64,000 nucleotides of DNA, taken from Deltaproteobacteria bacterium. GTDB taxonomy: Bacteria > Desulfobacterota > Desulfomonilia > UBA1062. A program made the position numbers and the translations under genes. Below, piece by piece: positions 21 through 57,686 of the stretch (position 1 is its first letter; each line of letters starts with the position of its first letter). The notes under the pieces are model-generated. The model was not told the DNA's origin. It did not search any database and saw only the letters and a program-made list of their open reading frames with translations. Location of the stretch: positions 40,576 to 104,575 of the forward strand of contig JAKPPU010000004.1 in the NCBI GenBank assembly GCA_029547185.1. Reading direction: 5' to 3'.

Positions 21-698
21 CTACTCGATCATTCCCCCATCCTGAGTGAACGAAGGTATGAAAATCCGCTTGATCGCCCTCTTCACGAGGTCGATGTACT
101 CGCCCCTGTCCAGCCTGATCATGGTGCGGAAAAAACTCTCCCCCGAGATGAAGCTGTGGATGGAATTCATGATGGTCAGGACGGCGACCATGGAGAATTG
201 TATGTGCTCCTTGTCCTGCTTGAGGCCCATCGAACGGACGCTGTCGATCGTAAATTCCGGCACCTTCAGGTCTGCAAGCTCCTCATGGCGGATCTTCCCG
301 AAGTACCTGTACAAGACCAGGTTGGATATCTCGGGGTGGAGGAACAGGTAATCGGTCAGCATGTCGATGCCGATTGCCATGCGCTCTTCGAGGGGCCGCC
401 CGTGGATGACCTTTTCCGTTTCGATGAACTTTTCCCTCAGGTCATTGTTGATGTCTATGATCGCTGCCTCATAGAGATCCTTCTTTTCCCCCCAGTGATA
501 ATGGAGGGTCGAGATGTCTATTCCCACTTCATGCGCGATCATCCTCATGGTGGTTCCATGAAAGCCGTATTCACCGAAGATCTTTCTGGCCACAGCCAGG
601 ATTTTTGCCTTCATCGATTCCGGATCTTTTCTTGCCTTCTCGAGCGTCGTTGTCATCAGCATCTCCGTCTGGATCATGATATCCCTGGTTTCTGGCAT
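21..698 (-). CDS. TetR/AcrR family transcriptional regulator
   Basis: N-terminal HTH motif KILAVARKIFGEYGFHGTTMRMIAHEVGIDISTLHYHWGEKKDL. The true start may be a later Met. Confidence 0.9.
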   Translation of the reverse strand: MPETRDIMIQTEMLMTTTLEKARKDPESMKAKILAVARKIFGEYGFHGTTMRMIAHEVGIDISTLHYHWGEKKDLYEAAIIDINNDLREKFIETEKVIHGRPLEERMAIGIDMLTDYLFLHPEISNLVLYRYFGKIRHEELADLKVPEFTIDSVRSMGLKQDKEHIQFSMVAVLTIMNSIHSFISGESFFRTMIRLDRGEYIDLVKRAIKRIFIPSFTQDGGMIE

Positions 699-16535: not shown

Positions 16536-17837
16536 CTACTTGACGAGGCTGGGCAGGAAGGTCGCGAGCTGCGGGAACGGGATGAGGAGGAAGGTCACGA
16601 GGACCATGGCGATGAGCAGAGGCAGGGCCCCTTTGAAGATGACGTGCAGAGGCACGTCCCTGGCAATCCCGCCCACCACGTAAACGTTCACTCCCACCGG
16701 CGGCGTGATGACGCCCATCTGGGTGACGAGCACGATGATGACCCCGAACCAGATGGGGTCGAACCCGTAGTGAAGCACCACCGGATAGAAGATAGGGATG
16801 GTGAGCATGATGAGTGCCAGCGAATCGATGAAGCATCCGCCGATGAGATAGATCACGACGATGAAGCTCATGATGGCCCAGGGCGGCATGTTGAACGAAG
16901 ATATCCAGCCCGCTATGTCATAGGGAATGCGCGATACCGCCAGGAAGTGTCCGAAGACGGTGGCGCCCGCCACGATCACCATGATCATGCAGGAGATCCT
17001 CGTGGTCTCCTCGAGGGCCTGTACGAAGCCTTTCCAGTCGATGTTGCGCTTGACGATTGCGACCACGAGCGTGGCGAATGCCCCCATGCCCCCGGCCTCG
17101 GTGGGGGTGAAGAGCCCTGCGAAGAGCCCTCCCATGACGAATACGAAGATGATGAGGATCTCCAGGGTTCCAGGCAGAGAGGCGATCCTTTCCTTCCAGG
17201 TGCTCTTCGGTCCCTTGGGGCCGAGCTCGGGTTTGAGCGTGACCCAGATGAGGATGGTGGCGATGAAGAAGATCGTCAGCACGATCCCCGGCAGAATGCC
17301 CGAGATGAAGAGCTTGCCGATGGACTGCTCGGTGAGGATGCCGTACACGATGAAGATGACGCTGGGCGGGATGAGGATGCCCAGACCCCCTCCTGCCGCC
17401 ACCACGCCGGTGGCCAGTTCGGGCTTGTAGTTGTAGCGCTTCATTTCGGGCAGGGTCGCAGCCGCCATGGTGGCTGCCGTGGCGTTCGTGGATCCGCAGA
17501 TGGCCGCAAAGGCCGCGCACGCACCGACGGTGGCAATGGCAAGACCGCCCGGCAGATGTCCGATGAACTTGTAGGCCGTATCGAAGAGCCGCGACGAGAT
17601 GCCTGCGTGGAAGGCGATCTGCCCCATGAGAACGAAGAGCGGAATCACGGTGAGGTTGTAGGAGTTAAAGACCGCAAAAACGTCCTTGGCCATGAGGCTC
17701 AAGGCCGAATCATAGGAGACGATCGTGCCGAACCCGATAAAGCCGATGAGGGCCATGACGAAGCCCACGGGCATCCTGCTGAAGAGCAGGACGACCAGTG
17801 CCAGAAGTCCGATGATGCCGATGGTTGTTGGACTCAT
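16536..17837 (-). CDS. TRAP transporter large permease (DctM family)
   Basis: IPLFVLMG, GGLAIA, GILIPPS, FTPTEAG, ITPPVG. Confidence 0.95.
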   Translation of the reverse strand: MSPTTIGIIGLLALVVLLFSRMPVGFVMALIGFIGFGTIVSYDSALSLMAKDVFAVFNSYNLTVIPLFVLMGQIAFHAGISSRLFDTAYKFIGHLPGGLAIATVGACAAFAAICGSTNATAATMAAATLPEMKRYNYKPELATGVVAAGGGLGILIPPSVIFIVYGILTEQSIGKLFISGILPGIVLTIFFIATILIWVTLKPELGPKGPKSTWKERIASLPGTLEILIIFVFVMGGLFAGLFTPTEAGGMGAFATLVVAIVKRNIDWKGFVQALEETTRISCMIMVIVAGATVFGHFLAVSRIPYDIAGWISSFNMPPWAIMSFIVVIYLIGGCFIDSLALIMLTIPIFYPVVLHYGFDPIWFGVIIVLVTQMGVITPPVGVNVYVVGGIARDVPLHVIFKGALPLLIAMVLVTFLLIPFPQLATFLPSLVK

Positions 17838-18328
17838 CCTATCTCAGCCCCCCTTAACTGACGCAGGAACTCGATGAGCAGGACTACGCAGAGCATGCCG
17901 CACCCGAGAGCGACGCCGTAGATGAACGGATACACCGGCATCTGGAGCGTGAGCGATACCTCGCCGGAGGCTTTCAGGCCATGTGCATAGACCACGCTCT
18001 GCCAGGTGATGATCCCGAACAGGAACGTTGACACGAGGGCGTTGATCGAGTACACGACCACCCTCACCATCCGGGGCATCTTCATCATGAGAATGTCGAC
18101 ATAGATGTGCCCGTTCTTGACCGAGGTGTACGGCAGCGCAAACGAGATGATCACGGCGCCCACGAACCCCACGATCTCATAGGTTCCCTTGATGGGGCTC
18201 CCGAAGAGACGCCCGACCACGTCCGCAACCGTGAGGAACATGATGAAGGCCACACCGGCCGCTGCCAGAAGGTTTACCTTTTCCGCAGCAGCGTCGACAA
18301 ACTTCTCTATACGCAAAAAAGAAATCAT
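17834..18328 (-). CDS. TRAP transporter small permease (DctQ family)
   Basis: Four TM segments, ADVVGR and GHIYVD motifs; overlaps the dctM-like gene by 4 nt. Confidence 0.92.
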   Translation of the reverse strand: MISFLRIEKFVDAAAEKVNLLAAAGVAFIMFLTVADVVGRLFGSPIKGTYEIVGFVGAVIISFALPYTSVKNGHIYVDILMMKMPRMVRVVVYSINALVSTFLFGIITWQSVVYAHGLKASGEVSLTLQMPVYPFIYGVALGCGMLCVVLLIEFLRQLRGAEIG

Positions 18329-18412
18329 GGGGGGTCCCCCTCGACATGCAGGGGAGGCCTCCGGTTTGTATCCGCCGGAGGCCTTCTCTGCAAATCAAAT
18401 TTTATGAAATCA

Positions 18413-19465
18413 TCACTTTCCGAACTTCGCGATCTTGTCCGCCAGCAGAGCAACGTACTTGTCGCCTTCGATGCCCTTTTCCTTCATGGCCTTGATGTAG
18501 CCGTCGATCACGGGCTTCACGGCAGCCTTCCATTTTTCAGCCTCTGCCGCGGGCAGGGCGACGACGGTGTTTCCGAGACCCTTGATGAAGGTCAGGCCTT
18601 CGGCATCCGCTTCATCCCAGGCCTTGCCCTGGACGTCTATGTACTCGCTGCTCACATCGGTGAAGACCTTCTTCACATCCTCGGGAAGCGCATCCCACTT
18701 CGCCATGTTCATGACCACGAACATGGCCGTGGTGTAGCCGACATTCGTGCAGTCGGTGGTGGCTTTCACGACCTCGCCCTGTTTCCAGCCCTTCATGGTC
18801 TCCATGGGGGCAAAGGTGCCTTCCACCACTCCCTTCTGGAGCGCCTCGTAGGTGCCGGGCTGCGGCATGGCCACGGGCACGCCGCCCAGGACCTCAACCA
18901 TCTTGGCGCTGAGTCCCGTGGAGCGGATCTTCATGCCCTTGAGATCCTTGAGCGTGCTCACCGGCTTCTTGGTATGCAGAAGGCCGGGACCGTGGGCATG
19001 GATGTAGAGCACGTGCACGTCGTCGAGCTCCGGGGGCTTCACCTCGTTGTAGAACTCGTTGGCGATCTTCGTCGCAGCCATGCCGTTTGGGTATCCGAGC
19101 GGCAGGTCTACCGCCTCCATGACCGGGAACCGTCCCCTGGTGTAGGCGAAGCAGGACATGCCGATGTCCGAGATCCCTTTCACGACGCCGTCATAGCAGT
19201 CATTGGCGCTCGTGAGCGTGCCGCCAGGGAACACGTTGATCTTCACTGCCCCGTTCGTCCGCTTTTCGATCTCTTTGGCCCATGCCTCACCGGCCTTGCA
19301 CTGGGCGTGGGTGGGCGGGAAGAAAATGCTGTACGTGAGCTCCACGGTCTTGGCCTTTGCCGCGCCTTCCGAGGATGCCGTTCCCTCTTCCGATTTCTTG
19401 CTGCAGGACACGCAGAGCATTGACGAGACCAGACAACAGATGAGACTGAATCCTAGCTTTTTCAT
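18413..19465 (-). CDS. TRAP transporter substrate-binding lipoprotein (DctP family)
   Basis: Lipobox CVSC; [31 protein letters not shown]. Confidence 0.93.
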
Positions 19466-19582: not shown

Positions 19583-20011
19583 TCATTCACCTCGATCCCC
19601 GGAGGCGGCCTTCGGCTCGAAATCCGCGTTGCAGTTGGGGCACTTGACGTTGTCTGCATACACGAGGCTGCCGCAGTCGGAGCATATCGATATCGTTCCT
19701 TCCTTCATGCCCGAGATGGCGCCCTTGAAAGGAAGGCCCGCTATCTTCTTGAGCAGGATGATGATCTCTGCGAGCGCATCGAAGAGGACATAGAGGGCGA
19801 CGCACGCGATGAGACCGGCGATTCCCAGGCCGATCCAGAGAAAGGAGGCGGTGAGGATGGTCACCACCACGCCCGCCAGGGAGCCGGCGATTCCCGCAAC
19901 GAGGAATATTCTGGCAACGACCGGCAGAGCGGCCTCCTTGCCTTGAGTATCCCTGAAAGGCTCGGTTACGATCCGGGCCATCTCCCTGCCCTGCGCAAGA
20001 TTCGAGTCCAT
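19583..20011 (-). CDS. Hypothetical membrane protein with a C-terminal zinc ribbon
   Basis: Two TM helices; CSDC...CPNC; starts 1 nt after the ACT gene stop. Confidence 0.65.
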   Translation of the reverse strand: MDSNLAQGREMARIVTEPFRDTQGKEAALPVVARIFLVAGIAGSLAGVVVTILTASFLWIGLGIAGLIACVALYVLFDALAEIIILLKKIAGLPFKGAISGMKEGTISICSDCGSLVYADNVKCPNCNADFEPKAASGDRGE

Positions 20012-20012
20012 G

Positions 20013-20444
20013 CTAGAGCCCGTAGACCTTCTCGCCGGGCAGCACCTTGAACCCGCCCTTCAGGAGCACGTCGATGGCGGAGTCGGTCGAATCGAAGCGG
20101 AAGATGATGACCGCGTTCTCGCCGCTGCGCTCGACGAAGGCGTACATGTACTCCACGTTGATCCCCTCCGCCGTGAGGGCCTCGAGGATGCTGTGGAGCC
20201 CGCCCGGCCTGTCCGGCACCTCGACCGCCACCACGTGGGTCTTGCCCACGGCGAACCCGGCCGCGTTCAGGACCTCCTTGGCCTTCGCGACGTTGTCGAC
20301 GATGAGCCTCAGGATTCCGAAGTCCGACGTATCGGCGAGCGAGAGCGCCCGGATGTTGATCTGTGCGTCCTTGATCGCCCTGGTGACACTCGAGAGACCG
20401 CCCGGCTTGTTCTCCAAAAAGATCGATATCTGTTCCACCTTCAT
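20013..20444 (-). CDS. Tandem ACT domain protein (paaK-associated)
   Basis: [13 protein letters not shown]...[21 protein letters not shown]...INVEYMYAF. Confidence 0.93.
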
Positions 20445-20454
20445 AACAGACCTC

Positions 20455-21756
20455 CTAGATATTCCTCTTGTCGACCACCCTCTGCGCCTTGCCCTCGAAC
20501 CGCTGGAGCTTCTTGGGCTCCACGAGCTTCACCTTTGCCGTGACCCCGAGATAGTCCTTGACGTCCTTCTTGATGCGCTTCTCGAGGTTCTGCAGCTCGC
20601 GGATCTCGTCCGAGAACACCTTTTCGCTCACCTCCACCTGGATCTCCAGGGTATCGAGCGAGCCTTCCCTGTCAACGATGAGCTGGTAGTGGGGCTCGAG
20701 CCCTTCGATGTCCATGATGACGCTCTCAATCTGGGAGGGGAACACGTTGACGCCCCTGATGATGAGCATGTCGTCACTCCTGCCGGAGATGCGCTCCATC
20801 CGCATGAAGGTCCTGCCGCACTTGCAGACCTCGGGCATGAGCCGGGTGATGTCCTTCGTACGGTACCTGATGAGGGGGAAGGCCTCCTTGGTGATGGTGG
20901 TGAACACGAGCTCGCCGGTCTCGCCGTAGGGCAGGACTTCGCCGGTTTTAGGATCGATGATCTCGGCGATGAAGTGGTCCTCGTAGATGTGCAGCCCGTT
21001 CCTGCCCTCGATGCACTCCATGGAGACGCCCGGGCCCATGACCTCGGAGAGGCCGTAGATGTTGAGCGCGGAGATGTCGAGCTCCTTCTCGATCTGGTCC
21101 CGCATCCTGTCGCTCCAGGGCTCTGCCCCGAGGATGCCGACCCTCAGTCTCAGGGACTTCATGTCCACACCCATCTCCCTGCCCGCCTCGGCCAGGAAGA
21201 GCAGGTACGACGGCGTGCAGCAGATGGCCGTGGGGCCGAAGTCCTGCAGGAGCAGGATCTGCTTCTTCGTGGAGCCGCCGGACATGGGGATGACGCTCGC
21301 GCCCAGTTTCTCTGCCCCGTAGTGGGCGCCCAGGCCGCCGGTGAAGAGCCCGTAGCCGTAGGAGTTGTGGATCACGTCGTTCTTCGTGAGGCCGGCCGCG
21401 GCAAAGGACCGGGCCATGAGGGTCGCCCAGGTGTCGATGTCGCGCTTCGTGTAGCCCACCACCGTGGGCTTGCCCGTGGTGCCCGACGAGGCGTGAAGCC
21501 GCACGATGTTGCTCATGGGCACGCTGAACAGCCCGAACGGATAGTTGTCCCGAAGGTCCTGCTTGACGGTGAAGGGGAGCTTCTTCAGGTCGTCGAGGCT
21601 CTGTACGTCGTCCGGGGTCACGCCGGCGCTGTCGAATGCCTTCCGGTAGAACCCGACCGTATGGTACACCCTGCTCACCACCTGCTGGAGCCTCTTCAAT
21701 TGCAGGGCCTCGATCGCCTCCCGGGGCAGCGTTTCGAATTCTTCGTTATAGATCAT
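20455..21756 (-). CDS. paaK: Phenylacetate--CoA ligase family protein
   Basis: [49 protein letters not shown]; start MIYNEEF at 21756 after GGAGG. Confidence 0.95.
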
Positions 21757-21782: not shown

Positions 21783-22343
21783 TTATGCCTGTCTTCCCCT
21801 TTTGAAGCCCTCGATGTTCGCCGCCCTGATCTTTTCCTTGAGCATGTCGTTCATGGTGAGGGTCCAGAGCGCCTCGTCGGCCTCGAGATAGGTCGAGAGC
21901 TTTCCCAGCAGGATGATGTTGACGCCCTTGGGGTTGCCCATCTCGTCCGCTATCCTGCTGCCGTCCACGATCACGATCCTGTCGGTCTTTTCCCGGAGGA
22001 TGGGCAGGACGTCCGGATAGGGCTCCTTGCCCGAGATCACCGAGGGCGGGGAGAGCCGGTAGCGGTTGATGATCACGACCGCGTCCTTTTTCAGGTACTG
22101 AACATAGCGGGCCGCTTCGAGCTCCTCGAAGGAGAGAAGAATGTCGCACTCTCCCAGGGGAATGAGGGGCGAAGCCACATGCTTCGCATACCGCACGTGC
22201 GACATCACGCTGCCGCCGCGCTGGGCCATGCCGTGGATCTCGGACTTCTTCACGTCGAACCCCGCCCTCATCATCACGTCCGCGAGCATGTCCGATGCGA
22301 GGATGATTCCCTGGCCGCCTACACCTGTCATGAGCACGTTCAT
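21783..22343 (-). CDS. iorB: Indolepyruvate (arylpyruvate):ferredoxin oxidoreductase beta subunit
   Basis: [24 protein letters not shown]; ATGA overlap with iorA. Confidence 0.93.
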
Positions 22344-24070
22344 TTGCCACCTCCGATCGCGTCCCGGGCGCAGGGCTCTTCGCACACGCCGCAGCCGGCG
22401 CACGAGCTGTTGATGAAGGATTTTTCATCCCTGAACTCGATGGCAGGGCACCCGAGCCCGATGCACACCTTGCAGCCGTTGCACTTCTCGGGATCGACAT
22501 GCAGGGGTTTTCCGGTCACCTTCCTCGATTTCAGGAGAACGCACGGCGCCTTCGATATGATGACCGAAGGGCCTTCGAAGGCCAGCGCCTCCTTGATGGT
22601 CTTGCGCGTCTTCTTGACGTCGTAGGGATCGACCGTCTTCACCCATTCGATGCCTAAGGCCTTCACGAGCTTTTCGAGATCGAGGCTGATCGTGGCCTCG
22701 CCCCGGATGGTGATGCCCGTCCCGGGGTGGTTCTGGGAGCCGGTCATGGCTGTCGTGGAGTTGTCGAGAATCACGACAAGGGCAGCGCCCTTGTTGTAGG
22801 CGAGGTTCGTGAGCCCGGTGATGCCCGAGTGATAGAAGGTCGAGTCCCCGATGACTGCGGCGATCTTCTCCTTCCCGGCCCCGAAGACCGTTGCCATGCC
22901 GTGGGCGTGGTTGATGCCCGCCCCCATGCACAGGCAGGTGTCGATGGCATCGAGCGGTGGGAGGAAGCCCAGCGTGTAGCAGCCGATGTCTCCCGCGATG
23001 AAGGCCTTATTGCGCCGGAGCGCCCAGAGGAGGCTTCTATGCGGGCAGCCCGGGCACATGCTGGGCGGTCTGCCGGGAAGCGGGGGCTTCACGAAGGGCG
23101 CAGGCGCGACGCCCGATATGGTGCTTTTGATGATGTCCGGGTTCAGCTCGCCGCACAGGGGAAGCCTGTCCTTGCCGTGGCAGTCGATACCTAGGGCCTT
23201 GATCTGGTCTTCCATGAAGGGATCGAGCTCCTCGACCACCCAGAGCTCGTCGACTTGCCCTGCGAACTCACGGATGAGCCTGTCGGGCATGGGATACGGC
23301 ATGCCCAGCTTCAGGAACGACGCCCCGGGGAAGGCCTCTTTCGCATACTGGTAGGCCACGCCCGAAGAGACGATCCCGAGCTTCCGGTCTCCCGTCTCGA
23401 TGACATTGAGCGGGGATGTGTTCGAATACTCTTTCAGCTCGACCATGCGCCTTTCGATGACGGGATGGCGGACCCTGGCATTGGCGGGCAGCATCACCCA
23501 TTCCGCCGGGTGCCTCTCGACGGAGGGCCTCGGAGGCTCCTTCACCTCCCCCATCTCCACGATGCCCATCGAATGGGAGATCCTCGTGGTGGTGCGGAGC
23601 ATGACCGGCGTCCCGAACTTCTCGCTTATCGAGATCGCCTCGATCATGAAGTCCTTTGCCTCCTGGGAGGTCGTAGGCTCCAGCATGGGGATCTTGGCAA
23701 AGCGTGCGTAATGCCGGTTGTCCTGCTCGTTCTGCGAGGAGAAGAGCTCGGGGTCGTCGGCGCTCACCAGGACGAGCCCTCCCCTGATGAGGGTATAGGG
23801 CAGGGTCATGAGAGGGTCTGCAGCCACGTTTACGCCCACGTGCTTCATGACGGCCATGGCGCGCGCCCCGGCATAGGATGCGCCGGCAGCCACCTCGAGG
23901 GCCACCTTCTCATTGGGTGTCCACTCGGCATGGATGCCCGGATACTCGGCAGCGATGTCTTCGAGCACCTCTGTCGACGGTGTGCCGGGGTATGCGGAGG
24001 CAAATGCCACGCCTGCCTCGTACGCCCCCCGGGCGATCGCCTCGTTTCCGCTCAAAATCTTCTTCATCAC
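22340..24070 (-). CDS. iorA: Indolepyruvate (arylpyruvate):ferredoxin oxidoreductase alpha subunit
   Basis: [46 protein letters not shown] (TPP binding), C-terminal 2x[4Fe-4S] motifs. Confidence 0.96.
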
Positions 24071-24208
24071 GTATTCCCCTTGACCATGATAAAATGTGCA
24101 TTCCGGGCTTGCTGAGCCCTGACCGTGCCGTTTCTTTGCCGCCCCACGGTATCACACGTTCGGTGCCTTGTCAGTCCCGGATGTGAATGCCCGGAAAGCC
24201 CCGGCATA

Positions 24209-24243
24209 ATAAAAAAGGCCATGGATTTCGTCCATGGCCTTTT
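24209..24243 (-). terminator. Attenuator terminator (segments 3:4)
   Basis: RNA AAAAGGCCAUGGA-CGAAA-UCCAUGGCCUUUUUUAU; about 140 nt upstream of the iorA start and oriented with the operon. Confidence 0.88.
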
Positions 24244-24266
24244 CCCATCCGGTGAGAGCCCCAGGC

Positions 24267-24338
24267 CTATGGACATAAGCTCATGCGATAATAAAAATAA
24301 AAGTAATAGGCCTTGGTGTCGACTCTTTCTGTCATCAT
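24267..24338 (-). CDS. Tyr/Phe-rich attenuation leader peptide MMTERVDTKAYYFYFYYRMSLCP
   Basis: Manual translation: seven consecutive Tyr/Phe codons (TAT TAC TTT TAT TTT TAT TAT), TAG stop 24 nt before the terminator, alternative pairings present. Confidence 0.85.
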   Translation of the reverse strand: MMTERVDTKAYYFYFYYRMSLCP

Positions 24339-24349
24339 AACGGTTTCCT

Positions 24350-24378
24350 ATATTCTATAGAAGTTCTTGCAGTGTCAA
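24350..24378 (-). promoter_or_regulatory. Sigma70-type promoter of the ior leader
   Basis: TTGACA (24378-24373), then TAGAAT at 15-nt spacing or GAATAT at 17-nt spacing, just upstream of the leader ATG. Confidence 0.55.
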
Positions 24379-24684
24379 GACAATTTCTGGCACCCTTCAA
24401 AGACGGTGTCTGCTGATGGCGCCCGCGGTGCGGCTTTTTAAAGAAAATCATATCGTTGCATGGCGCGGACGAGGCCGCACATCAGCCCGGCGGTGAGGAT
24501 CACCATCTAAAAACCAAGGTGCTGCCTCTCTTAAAATGCCGTAGCGAATGATGCTGCCGGCATATTACAGCAGCTGCCGATGATCATTATAAATTATGCC
24601 TGAATCCTTTTTGCCGGATAATGCATCTTGACATTGACTGACCAGTTCCGATACCTTGCCAAATTCGAAGAGATGGTAGTTGAT

Positions 24685-25767
24685 ATGGATCATACAGAGG
24701 CATGGGTTACTCTGGATCTCATCTCCTGTATCGGGCCCAAGAGTGCACAGAGACTCCTCGAGATTTTTAAAACCCCCGAGAACATCCTCTCTGCCCCGAT
24801 ATCGAAGATCAAGGAGACGGGTTTCCTCAATGCGGCTCAGCTCAAGAGCCTGGCCGGCGGACCGGACAGAGAGGCGGTGGAGAAGGCATTCACCGCGCTC
24901 AAGGCGCACGGTGCCCGTGCCGTGGGGTTCGACGATCCGTCCTACCCGGAGGTCTTGAAGCAGATCGAAGACCCTCCCCTTGTGCTGTACGTCAAGGGAT
25001 CTCTTGCAGACCTCGAGCCTGCGGTCGCCATCGTGGGCACGCGCGCACCTTCCCATTACGGCAGGGAAACGGCCTTTTCCCTGGCCCGCGACCTGAGCGC
25101 AAAAGGCGTCACGGTCGTATCGGGGCTGGCCAGAGGGATCGACACGGCTGCCCATGAGGGGGCGCTCGAAGGCATGGCAAGCACGGTCGCGGTCCTGGGC
25201 TCCGGCATCGACGTGATCTACCCGCCGGAAAACGCAGGCCTCGCAGAGAAGATCGCGCACAGAGGGGCAGTGATAAGCGAGAATCCGCCCGGCACGTTTC
25301 CCGACCCGGGAAACTTCCCCAGGCGCAACCGGATCATTTCCGCTCTGTCCTCAGGGGTCGTGGTGGTCGAGGCGGCGTATCGGTCCGGTGCGCTCATCAC
25401 CTCGCGGCTTGCCATGGAGCAGGGCAAAACCGTGATGGCCGTGCCCGGCCAAATCACGAACGTGAGGTCGCAGGGGCCGCACCACCTGATCCGTCAGGGC
25501 GCTGCGCTCGTACGGGACGCCGATGACGTGCTCATGGAGATCGCACCTCAGGTAAAGAGAGCCATCGGGATAACCGAAACACTCCTGCAGCCGTCCGACG
25601 AGATCGTCGAGCTCACCGGGGGCGATGCACTGAGCATCGAGGATATCGCCCGCGAGCTGGGCCTCGACGTCGTGGAGGCGGCAAAGAGGGTGAGCATGCT
25701 CGAGCTTGCGGGGAAGATCGTGAGGATAGAGGGCAACAGATTCACAGCAAGGAGTACGAATGAGTAA
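24685..25767 (+). CDS. dprA: DNA processing/protecting protein DprA (Smf)
   Basis: DPPLVLYVKG, VAIVGTR, VVSGLARGID, FPRRNRIIS, SGALIT; upstream of topA. Confidence 0.95.
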   Translation: MDHTEAWVTLDLISCIGPKSAQRLLEIFKTPENILSAPISKIKETGFLNAAQLKSLAGGPDREAVEKAFTALKAHGARAVGFDDPSYPEVLKQIEDPPLVLYVKGSLADLEPAVAIVGTRAPSHYGRETAFSLARDLSAKGVTVVSGLARGIDTAAHEGALEGMASTVAVLGSGIDVIYPPENAGLAEKIAHRGAVISENPPGTFPDPGNFPRRNRIISALSSGVVVVEAAYRSGALITSRLAMEQGKTVMAVPGQITNVRSQGPHHLIRQGAALVRDADDVLMEIAPQVKRAIGITETLLQPSDEIVELTGGDALSIEDIARELGLDVVEAAKRVSMLELAGKIVRIEGNRFTARSTNE

Positions 25768-56813: not shown

Positions 56814-57578
56814 ATGAAGGTAAATACGGACTATTACCTCGAGCAGGTGAGGCAGATACTCCCTGCCGTCAGCAGGGATACGGCCGATAACGGCGTAGCG
56901 TCTTCCTTTGCCGACATGCTCGAAGATGTCGTGAACCGGCAGGCATCGGGAAAGCCCGGGATCGATTCGCTGAGCAAGGACCGGCTCAGGATGCTGGCGG
57001 AGATGGTGAGCATCCGGATGGGCTACTCGGTGCTCAACTCGCTCGGCAGCGGCGACCGTGAATCGGAAGATGCATCCCCTGTCCCGGTCTCCCTGTTTTC
57101 CGGGCTGTCTCCCTGCTCTTCTGCCCGGGGGATAGAGCAGGCAGATCCGGAGCTCGGAGGCTTCACGACGGAACCTTCATCCTCAGGACATGGGGAAAAT
57201 GAGTTCGCCTCCATCATCGACCGCGCCTCCCGGAGGTACGGGGTCGACAGCAGCCTGATCAGATCGGTCATCAGCGCCGAGAGCGGCTTCGACCCGCGGG
57301 CCACCTCACCGAAAGGCGCGATGGGGCTCATGCAGCTCATGCCCGACACTGCACGGGGGCTGGGCGTGAGGGACGCCTACGATCCTGAGGAGAACATCAT
57401 GGCGGGGACGCGCTATTTGAAATATCTCCTCGACAGGTACGACGGGAACGTTCCCCTGGCCCTGGCGGCATACAACTGGGGCATGGGCAACGTGGAGCGC
57501 GGGACCGGGAGGTTCCCCGAAGAGACCCGCGGATATGTTGCAAGGATCATGAGGAGCTACAGGGAGGACGGCGTCTAG
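56814..57578 (+). CDS. Lytic transglycosylase (SLT domain)
   Basis: VISAESGF, GAMGLMQLMP, LAAYNWG. Confidence 0.92.
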   Translation: MKVNTDYYLEQVRQILPAVSRDTADNGVASSFADMLEDVVNRQASGKPGIDSLSKDRLRMLAEMVSIRMGYSVLNSLGSGDRESEDASPVPVSLFSGLSPCSSARGIEQADPELGGFTTEPSSSGHGENEFASIIDRASRRYGVDSSLIRSVISAESGFDPRATSPKGAMGLMQLMPDTARGLGVRDAYDPEENIMAGTRYLKYLLDRYDGNVPLALAAYNWGMGNVERGTGRFPEETRGYVARIMRSYREDGV

Positions 57579-57686
57579 GGGCTCACCCGGGGCCTTTCCT
57601 GCCGGCAGCCGAGGAATCCAGTATCACGGATCTTCGTACCCTTGCCTGATTTATCCCTGATTCCTAATATAGTTCTAGCATTGTTC

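Follow-up and report, generated by a model that had tools for sequence, protein, structure and literature searches.

A transcription attenuator of the trpL/pheL type, in which a ribosome translating a short leader peptide would sense the charging of Tyr- and Phe-tRNA, very probably controls the iorA-iorB-paaK-ACT genes of an uncultured Deltaproteobacteria bacterium. The element was recognised from its sequence on the minus strand of the window, as the whole 64,000-nucleotide (nt) stretch analysed here is called (assembly GCA_029547185.1, contig JAKPPU010000004.1, positions 40,576 to 104,575). It lies upstream of iorA, encoding the alpha subunit of indolepyruvate/arylpyruvate:ferredoxin oxidoreductase (IOR). 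That the leader is translated, that the RNA ends at the U run and that Tyr and Phe govern read-through are expected by analogy, and the logic of induction by starvation rests on the geometry of the locus and on the precedent of trpL and pheL.

Organization of the leader region

The elements follow one another on the minus strand in the order TTGACA, -10-like hexamer, leader open reading frame (ORF), hairpin and iorA, the last situated 140 nt beyond the U run. The leader ORF (24338..24267), established from the strand itself and from the list of ORFs, comprises 23 codons and a UAG stop and is translated as MMTERVDTKAYYFYFYYRMSLCP. It contains seven consecutive Tyr/Phe codons, TAT TAC TTT TAT TTT TAT TAT (YYFYFYY; 24308-24288), regarded as the regulatory codons, six of which are U-ending minor codons. 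In all six frames of the 4.19-Mb genome there are 33 runs of at least five Y/F/W residues; 17 of them fall in stop-to-stop frames shorter than 70 codons, and the sole run of seven among these 17 is that of the ior leader.

Four segments with the potential for alternative pairing were located. The core of segment 1, AGGCCUAU (24313-24306), was identified by folding, and in the fold of the window leader its helix reaches upstream to about 24320. Segment 2, GUCCAUAGGCCU (24274-24263), can pair with segment 1 or with segment 3 and includes the last leader codons UGU-CCA (Cys-Pro) as well as the UAG stop at 24269-24267. Segment 3, AGGCCAUGGAC (24240-24230, or 24243-24230 with the preceding AAA), forms the 5' arm of the terminator and the 3' arm of the antiterminator. 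Segment 4, UCCAUGGCCU (24225-24216), is the 3' arm of the intrinsic terminator and is followed by a U run to 24211, arm and tail together being UCCAUGGCC (24225-24211). The resulting perfect hairpin, AAAAGGCCAUGGA-CGAAA-UCCAUGGCCUUUUUU (24243-24211), has a GC-rich stem of 13-14 bp and then 6 U. The preliminary description of this DNA had postulated both the leader of 23 amino acids (aa), with its seven Tyr/Phe codons between TTGACA and a U-tailed terminator, and the four segments with 1:2, 2:3 (one bulged A) and 3:4 pairings; all were found in place, and the folds agree with them.

Since the upstream dprA and topA genes are transcribed in the opposite direction, divergently from the leader, and no gene of the same strand lies upstream, the hairpin is not the terminator of a preceding gene. 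Its motif GGCC[AG]TGG...CCATGG[CT]C occurs at two sites only in the genome, in the ior leader and upstream of leuA.

The minimum free energy (MFE) structure of a 151-nt transcript combined the 1:2 helix with the terminator at -49.3 kcal/mol (z = -3.45), and none of 200 shuffled sequences folded as well. When segment 1 was masked and segment 4 was absent, the window RNA adopted the 2:3 helix with one bulged A at -22.2 and -21.5 kcal/mol, while the terminator alone was worth -21.1 kcal/mol.

These structures fit the following course of events. Transcription would start a few bases ahead of the leader ATG. With ample charged Tyr- and Phe-tRNA the ribosome would pass the seven aromatic codons, arrive at the terminal Pro-UAG and cover segment 2, upon which segments 3 and 4 would form the U-tailed terminator and the RNA would end before iorA. 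If no ribosome were present, segments 1 and 2 would pair and termination would follow as well. Under a shortage of Tyr- or Phe-tRNA, the ribosome would stall on the aromatic codons and cover segment 1; segment 2, left free, would pair with segment 3 ahead of the synthesis of segment 4, and the polymerase would read into the operon.

Conservation, covariation and related leaders

Orthologs of iorA were present in 61 of 61 relatives. Among the 30 best iorA-ortholog loci (67-88 % protein identity), 26 carried segment 2 and the terminator motif upstream; the first regular expression used for the terminator arm was too strict, recovering 3 of the 30 loci, and was replaced by the looser one behind this count. 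A covariance model (R1) extending from segment 2 through the terminator was built only from ior leaders and applied with a threshold of 50 bits. Scores of at least 50 bits were obtained in 40 of the 52 genomes of the family. The class has a single further family, the sister family; of its 70 genomes compared none reached this score, and five gave matches of 34-38 bits. At 16 iorA loci of that family (57 % identity) the gene is preceded by a promoter and then by a long leader that is untranslated, with no Tyr/Phe ORF and no terminator. Since R1 was found across the one family, as against 0/70 genomes and iorA loci without a leader peptide in the other, the ior element is, on the genomes compared, a family-level innovation, restricted to a single family of uncultured bacteria of the Desulfomonilia type.

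When one genome of each GTDB species was scanned with a degenerate motif, 40 matches were returned. Four of these, in Chromatiales, Chitinophaga, Solirubrobacterales and Elusimicrobiaceae, lacked a leader and were chance occurrences. The remaining 36 came from metagenome-assembled genomes labelled Desulfomonilia, Deltaproteobacteria, Syntrophaceae, Thermodesulfobacteriota, 'Bacteriovoracaceae' and 'Desulfobacteraceae' (locus L052). In 31 of these 36 an iorA gene starts directly downstream, two are cut by a contig end, one is unclear and two stand before other genes. It had been anticipated that Y/F-rich short ORFs with covarying stems would recur upstream of iorA homologs in Desulfobacterota, and this was borne out by the 26/30 loci and 40/52 family genomes given above, by the compensatory changes described below and by the labels of the named motif-bearing records (Desulfomonilia, Deltaproteobacteria or Thermodesulfobacteriota).

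R1 also matched a long GC-rich hairpin (…GGCCGCGGGUAGAUCC…) at loci L142, L143 and L146 (genomes G006, G008 and G004). This hairpin is accompanied by no aromatic leader and has no downstream gene nearby; the stem motif is probably shared here by an ordinary terminator.

The pooled loci yielded 37 distinct copies of the leader. Their N-terminal halves are unrelated between genera (e.g. MLPNTLELLGFYFFIF..., MFEKTATKAYYYGFYF... and MSIGGVFFSYSYLYFY...), and Tyr and Phe make up 20-38 % of the residues in every copy and 28 % overall, the corresponding figure for the long frames of the genome being 6.4 %. In total 120 Y, 119 F and 4 W were counted. Downstream of the aromatic block and up to the stop, gap lengths are multiples of three (columns 76-78 and 88-90 of alignment A2), therefore the aromatic codons stay in frame. 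Codons ending in U prevail (TTT 97 vs TTC 22; TAT 80 vs TAC 40), while in the long frames of the window's genome, the only one counted, TTT represents 21 % of the Phe codons and TAT 38 % of the Tyr codons. In its composition and framing the leader ORF appears to behave as a translated sensor.

Both alternative helices demonstrated compensatory changes. The 2:3 helix was paired in 93.5 % of the cells of alignment A2 and changed in a compensatory manner at two pairs, the clearest, at columns 93/139, being C-G to U-A within the window's clade, with a matching change in segment 4. Its covariation score was 0.159 vs 0.119 for shuffled alignments and was reached by none of 500 shuffles. In the 1:2 helix changes on both sides were seen in 8 of 14 pairs, and the score of 0.251 vs 0.184 was likewise reached by 0/500 shuffles, every slid register scoring lower. 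When sequences were folded one by one, among the loci listed, the RNA without a ribosome adopted the 1:2 helix and the terminator, and the RNA with segment 1 masked and segment 4 lacking adopted the 2:3 hairpin with one bulged A at -19 to -25 kcal/mol, the terminator alone being worth about -20 kcal/mol. A ribosome set on the stop codon, taken to cover about 12-15 nt to either side, gave the terminator in all 37 copies.

Related leaders were found in the same genomes. In the window's own genome, on contig C196 (about 400-563, plus strand; L090/L092), a Leu-run peptide …RADLALLLLLCLKAIGCRPHTLGCP-stop and a GGCCAUGGGC-type terminator directly precede the leuA gene for 2-isopropylmalate synthase (…DLALLLLLCL…GCP-stop). 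R1 matched this upstream region over its full length with 34.5 bits, and Leu-run leaders ending in GCP or GYP stand before leuA in four fetched loci of relatives. The second version of the genome-wide attenuator scanner misses the leuA leader, since its frame stays open far upstream. On contig C52 of the same genome (about 57490-57640, plus strand; L089) a Tyr/Phe/Trp peptide, MTNRNAYRYFGFYFWYGKGEPPVG, with its own terminator precedes a gene for 3-deoxy-D-arabino-heptulosonate-7-phosphate (DAHP) synthase with an N-terminal ferredoxin-like domain (PF00793 and PF18152). In other genomes of the family, 11 fetched loci have homologous leaders, of the form …RYYG[FY]YFWF…PPVG, ahead of DAHP-synthase-like genes.

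The ior-type module itself, with Tyr-rich leaders such as MRNYACIQAYRYVYYYRKKRCP, also stands before the gene of a secreted LivK-type periplasmic binding protein (PF13458) in three genomes (L059 = L126 in G022, L127 in G030 and L123 in G012), which looks like an amino-acid uptake gene of the same regulon. At L052 (2037-3281, plus strand) the same segment 2/terminator module stands before a gene for the D-component of 2-hydroxyacyl-CoA dehydratase (PF06050), its leader, MGWCAIFSFLGRSLRP, being weaker.

The residues enriched in the leaders thus track the pathway downstream: Y/F/W are enriched before the common aromatic pathway, Tyr and Phe but not Trp before ior-paaK, and Leu before leuA. Because of this correspondence, which is the strongest argument available, the codons themselves are taken to be the signal.

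The end of the leader could suggest another way of sensing. All 37 copies finish with Pro-UAG, the stop occupying a fixed place within segment 2, whose core CCAUAGG is invariant bar one copy with CCCUAGG, and a Cys-Pro-stop ending is found in the leuA and binding-protein leaders too. C-terminal Pro slows termination, and TnaC-type arrest is characterised by conserved ligand-sensing residues in the exit tunnel, stalling at Pro-stop and Rho-dependent termination downstream. A nascent peptide might accordingly stall at Pro-UAG in answer to free Tyr or Phe, the dwell time at the stop setting the choice between terminator and antiterminator. We consider this very unlikely. The Pro and stop codons belong to a stretch that is paired in either helix, 1:2 or 2:3, so that the demands of RNA pairing would suffice to account for their invariance. 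With the same ending, the leuA leaders carry runs of Leu codons, an indication that the identity of the codons is the signal. The peptide residues beyond the aromatic block vary freely and the terminator is intrinsic, not Rho-dependent. Moreover, a ribosome held at the stop would cover segment 2 and favour termination, which is the same direction of control as in attenuation by stalling on Tyr/Phe codons.

The cores of segments 2 and 3 are near-invariant beyond what pairing usually needs and could mark a binding site, in which case the ORF would be incidental and the terminator/antiterminator switch would be operated by a protein or a small ligand, as in a riboswitch, a T-box or the target of an RNA-binding regulator. 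An Rfam scan of both strands of 23000-25500 at E up to 10 gave no match to any leader, T-box or riboswitch family; its six matches all belonged to unrelated families and were far under the gathering scores (best 22.1 bits vs 60). In addition, the frame, the stop position and the Tyr/Phe block are kept in 37 diverged copies through synonymous and Tyr/Phe-swapping changes, and in the sister elements the enriched amino acid changes with the pathway. A switch of this kind is therefore held to be highly improbable, and attenuation governed by the aromatic codons is preferred.

Promoter, transcripts and weighing of the proposed attenuator

The putative promoter of the leader and the ior operon has an exact -35 hexamer TTGACA (24378-24373, minus strand), which is retained in all 37 distinct copies 29-34 nt ahead of the leader ATG. 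A -10-like hexamer, GAATAT (24355-24350, minus strand), follows at a spacing of 17 nt; its assignment is uncertain, as TAGAAT at a spacing of 15 nt overlaps it. In the relatives GATATA, GAATAT or CATATA occupies the position at the 17-nt spacing.

The ior stretch was present in many metagenomes from sludge, wastewater, bioreactors and soil and in two RNA libraries of one activated-sludge study. An RNA contig of 618 nt (X18) matched 23712-24328 with zero differences and extends from within the leader ORF over the terminator as far as iorA. A second one (X17) spans 22905-24171 and ends within the spacer between the terminator and iorA. Among the contigs mapped to 22900-24700, none covered 24364-24700. 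RNA runs X19 and X20 contributed fragments of 90-95 % likeness or one 279-nt piece inside iorA and are uninformative on the leader. Together these contigs give a weak hint that read-through RNA beginning near the predicted promoter exists.

The position of the X17 end, and the 140 nt separating the U run from iorA in the window, which leave room for a promoter, could also be read as signs that the ORF encodes a separate small hydrophobic protein with its own terminator and that iorA is transcribed from its own downstream promoter. In most relatives the iorA start lies 16-27 nt after the U run, where no such room exists, the peptide is not conserved past its composition and X18 continues from the leader through the terminator to iorA. 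Two independent transcription units are thus scarcely credible here.

Several observations argue against the attenuator as proposed. The first concerns its distribution, the element being missing from four iorA orthologs of the family (L017, L019 and L022 of one genus, and L029). The second concerns folding. It had been proposed that masking of segment 1 would release the antiterminator; this held for RNA lacking segment 4, which adopted the 2:3 helix, but not for full-length transcripts, in which the terminator remained the MFE structure in 33 of the 37 copies. Read-through must therefore depend on the 2:3 helix forming first during transcription. Classical attenuators are likewise understood to rely on the order of folding during transcription.

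The 1:2 helix is not equally convincing in all lineages. Unguided RNAalifold on the MAFFT alignment gave the terminator and a 3-bp hairpin only, with neither the 1:2 nor the 2:3 helix. Several lineages pair segments 1 and 2 weakly or in a different register; the duplex is worth -4 to -7 kcal/mol in L014, L015 and L027 and -10 to -14 kcal/mol in L021, L023, L025, L026 and L028. Cognate 1:2 partners were about 3 kcal/mol better than non-cognate ones (-20.0 vs -17.2), a weak discrimination which is due to the invariant core of segment 2.

The promoter raises doubts of its own. GAATAT agrees with TATAAT at 3 of 6 positions only, and the TTGACA promoter of ior was not listed by a simple promoter scan of the consensus type. 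The attenuator hairpin was not listed by a simple terminator scan. We take these misses to be due to the weak -10 hexamer and to a stem beyond the loop/stem pattern of the tool. In the 37 distinct copies the leader ATG lies just 6-11 nt past the -10-like hexamer, which would leave about 0-5 nt of RNA ahead of the ATG, and the leader peptides would be made from leaderless or near-leaderless RNA. The AGGA before the window ATG would sit upstream of the RNA start, and translation would have to begin from a very short 5' end. Finally, the transcripts mentioned above are assembled RNA contigs of one study, which cannot show ends, strand or level and may include carried-over DNA.

A plus-strand terminator-like site (24419-24431) was listed by a consensus scan in the dprA-ior intergenic region, where no plus-strand gene ends.

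The ior operon and comparison with known systems

The iorA gene (22340..24070, minus strand; start GTG 24070 or ATG 24067) scored 739.9 bits against TIGR03336 (cut-off 650.9), and Pfam domains were matched too. About 115 additional bases lie between the terminator and iorA (24071-24210, minus strand) in the window and in its closest relatives L002 and L003. The iorB frame, as listed, extends over 22403..21783 on the same strand (21783..22403), and its true start is probably near 22346; it matched PF01558 and, from residue 20, NF005322 with 234.8 bits, below the cut-off of 237. It is followed by paaK for phenylacetate-CoA ligase (20455..21756, minus strand, start 21756), with 648.6 bits against TIGR02155 (cut-off 646.3), and by a gene for an ACT-domain-pair protein (20013..20444, minus strand; PF19571, E = 4.1e-28). 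The order iorA-iorB-paaK was found in 18 of 18 related loci extending far enough, with the ACT gene after paaK in 14 of the 14 reaching that far.

Farther downstream lie the dctP, dctQ and dctM genes of a tripartite ATP-independent periplasmic (TRAP) transporter (16536..19465, minus strand; PF03480, PF04290 and PF06808), which are probably co-transcribed with iorA-iorB-paaK-ACT. A dctP gene follows in four related loci and is missing from at least three. Between the ACT gene and dctP stands an ORF of 142 aa (19583..20011, minus strand) without a family match. Its product has a hydrophobic middle and a Cys-rich C-terminus with a CxxC…CxxC motif and is 44-47 % identical to ORFs in the same position in L037, L051, L054 and L063.

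The presence of IOR, PaaK and the ACT protein is compatible with a route that turns aryl acids into Phe and Tyr. Aryl acids would be taken up by the TRAP transporter, activated by PaaK, reductively carboxylated by IOR to arylpyruvates and transaminated to Phe and Tyr. Since induction is expected under Tyr/Phe starvation, the operon is predicted to serve Phe/Tyr supply, and it seems fairly probable that IOR-PaaK runs in this direction. Against it stands that the anabolic direction follows from the regulatory logic alone and that IOR is known as a catabolic enzyme as well.

If the switch works as read, it would provide a regulatory argument for the direction of IOR-PaaK in uncultured sludge and sediment bacteria, namely that amino acids are made from aryl acids and not that aryl acids are fermented. 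It would also outline a small aromatic attenuation regulon composed of DAHP synthase (Y/F/W), ior-paaK (Y/F) and the binding protein (Tyr-rich). The shared RNA module could join the libraries of RNA families and improve the annotation of these genomes.

A broader picture may be put forward tentatively, although we doubt that all of its parts would hold together. A single reusable expression platform, consisting of Pro-UAG inside segment 2 and a GGCCAUGG-type terminator, might be combined with swappable leader cassettes: Tyr/Phe for iorAB-paaK, Tyr for the amino-acid binding protein and Leu for leuA. Translation would be leaderless or nearly so, and the slowly terminating Pro-UAG would act as a timing device. 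IOR-PaaK would be a starvation-induced salvage route to Phe and Tyr from environmental aryl acids, parallel to the de novo DAHP synthase with its Y/F/W leader.

The mechanism is a textbook one and the set of target genes is unusual; an attenuator on an ior operon is not described in the literature found. A full-text literature search, with supplementary files outside its scope, returned no paper pairing ior genes with a leader peptide or attenuation, nor one pairing Desulfomonilia with indolepyruvate, in keeping with the initial impression that this control is uncharacterised for an ior-paaK operon.

The detailed geometry of trpL is the textbook model of attenuation. The architecture and logic of the trpL/pheL attenuators, as outlined in the passages available from PMC11802643, are matched by the ior leader. 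As in trpL-trpEDCBA, the position of the ribosome would select the hairpin, and a ribosome at the leader stop would block segment 2 (same source, in the part covering trpL). Unlike the ior leader, trpL senses Trp via two codons; the ior leader, for its part, has its stop within segment 2 and an invariant Pro-UAG at its end.

The resemblance to pheL-pheA of Escherichia coli and other gamma-proteobacteria lies in the short leader with aromatic codons, the 1:2/2:3/3:4 alternatives and the intrinsic terminator before the first gene; for pheL-pheA, read-through under starvation is described in the sections available of two sources (PMC11802643; PMC3082878). In contrast to the ior leader, which mixes Tyr and Phe about equally before iorAB-paaK-ACT, pheL is Phe-only and precedes the gene for chorismate mutase/prephenate dehydratase. 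There is no detectable similarity in sequence or model between the ior leader and pheL, no Rfam leader family having been matched.

To our knowledge, no leader-peptide control is known for the IOR of Methanococcus maripaludis. This enzyme works in the synthetic direction, from aryl acids to aromatic amino acids (Porat et al., as cited in the excerpted text of PMC4162585), and such synthetic use is the function predicted for the present bacteria by the regulatory logic. The differences are that M. maripaludis is an archaeon and that the bacterial operon further encodes PaaK, the ACT protein and, in a part of the family, a TRAP transporter. In the portion available of another source, IORs beside acyl-CoA ligases are discussed in a fermentative setting and IOR figures as a catabolic enzyme too (PMC13285125).

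For the Actinobacteria, the accessible part of a comparative survey reports no RNA elements for Phe or Tyr genes (PMC1262725). The aroR-aroF system of Corynebacterium glutamicum (Neshat et al. 2014) has a Phe-Tyr-Phe leader on which stalling raises transcription, and it responds to Phe and not to Tyr, according to the account given in the available passages of PMC11802643. On that account the ior leader is similar in mixing Phe and Tyr codons and different in that aroR controls a DAHP synthase with three regulatory codons in another phylum, the ior leader having seven. The closer counterpart of aroR-aroF in the present family is the Y/F/W leader before DAHP synthase and not the ior leader.

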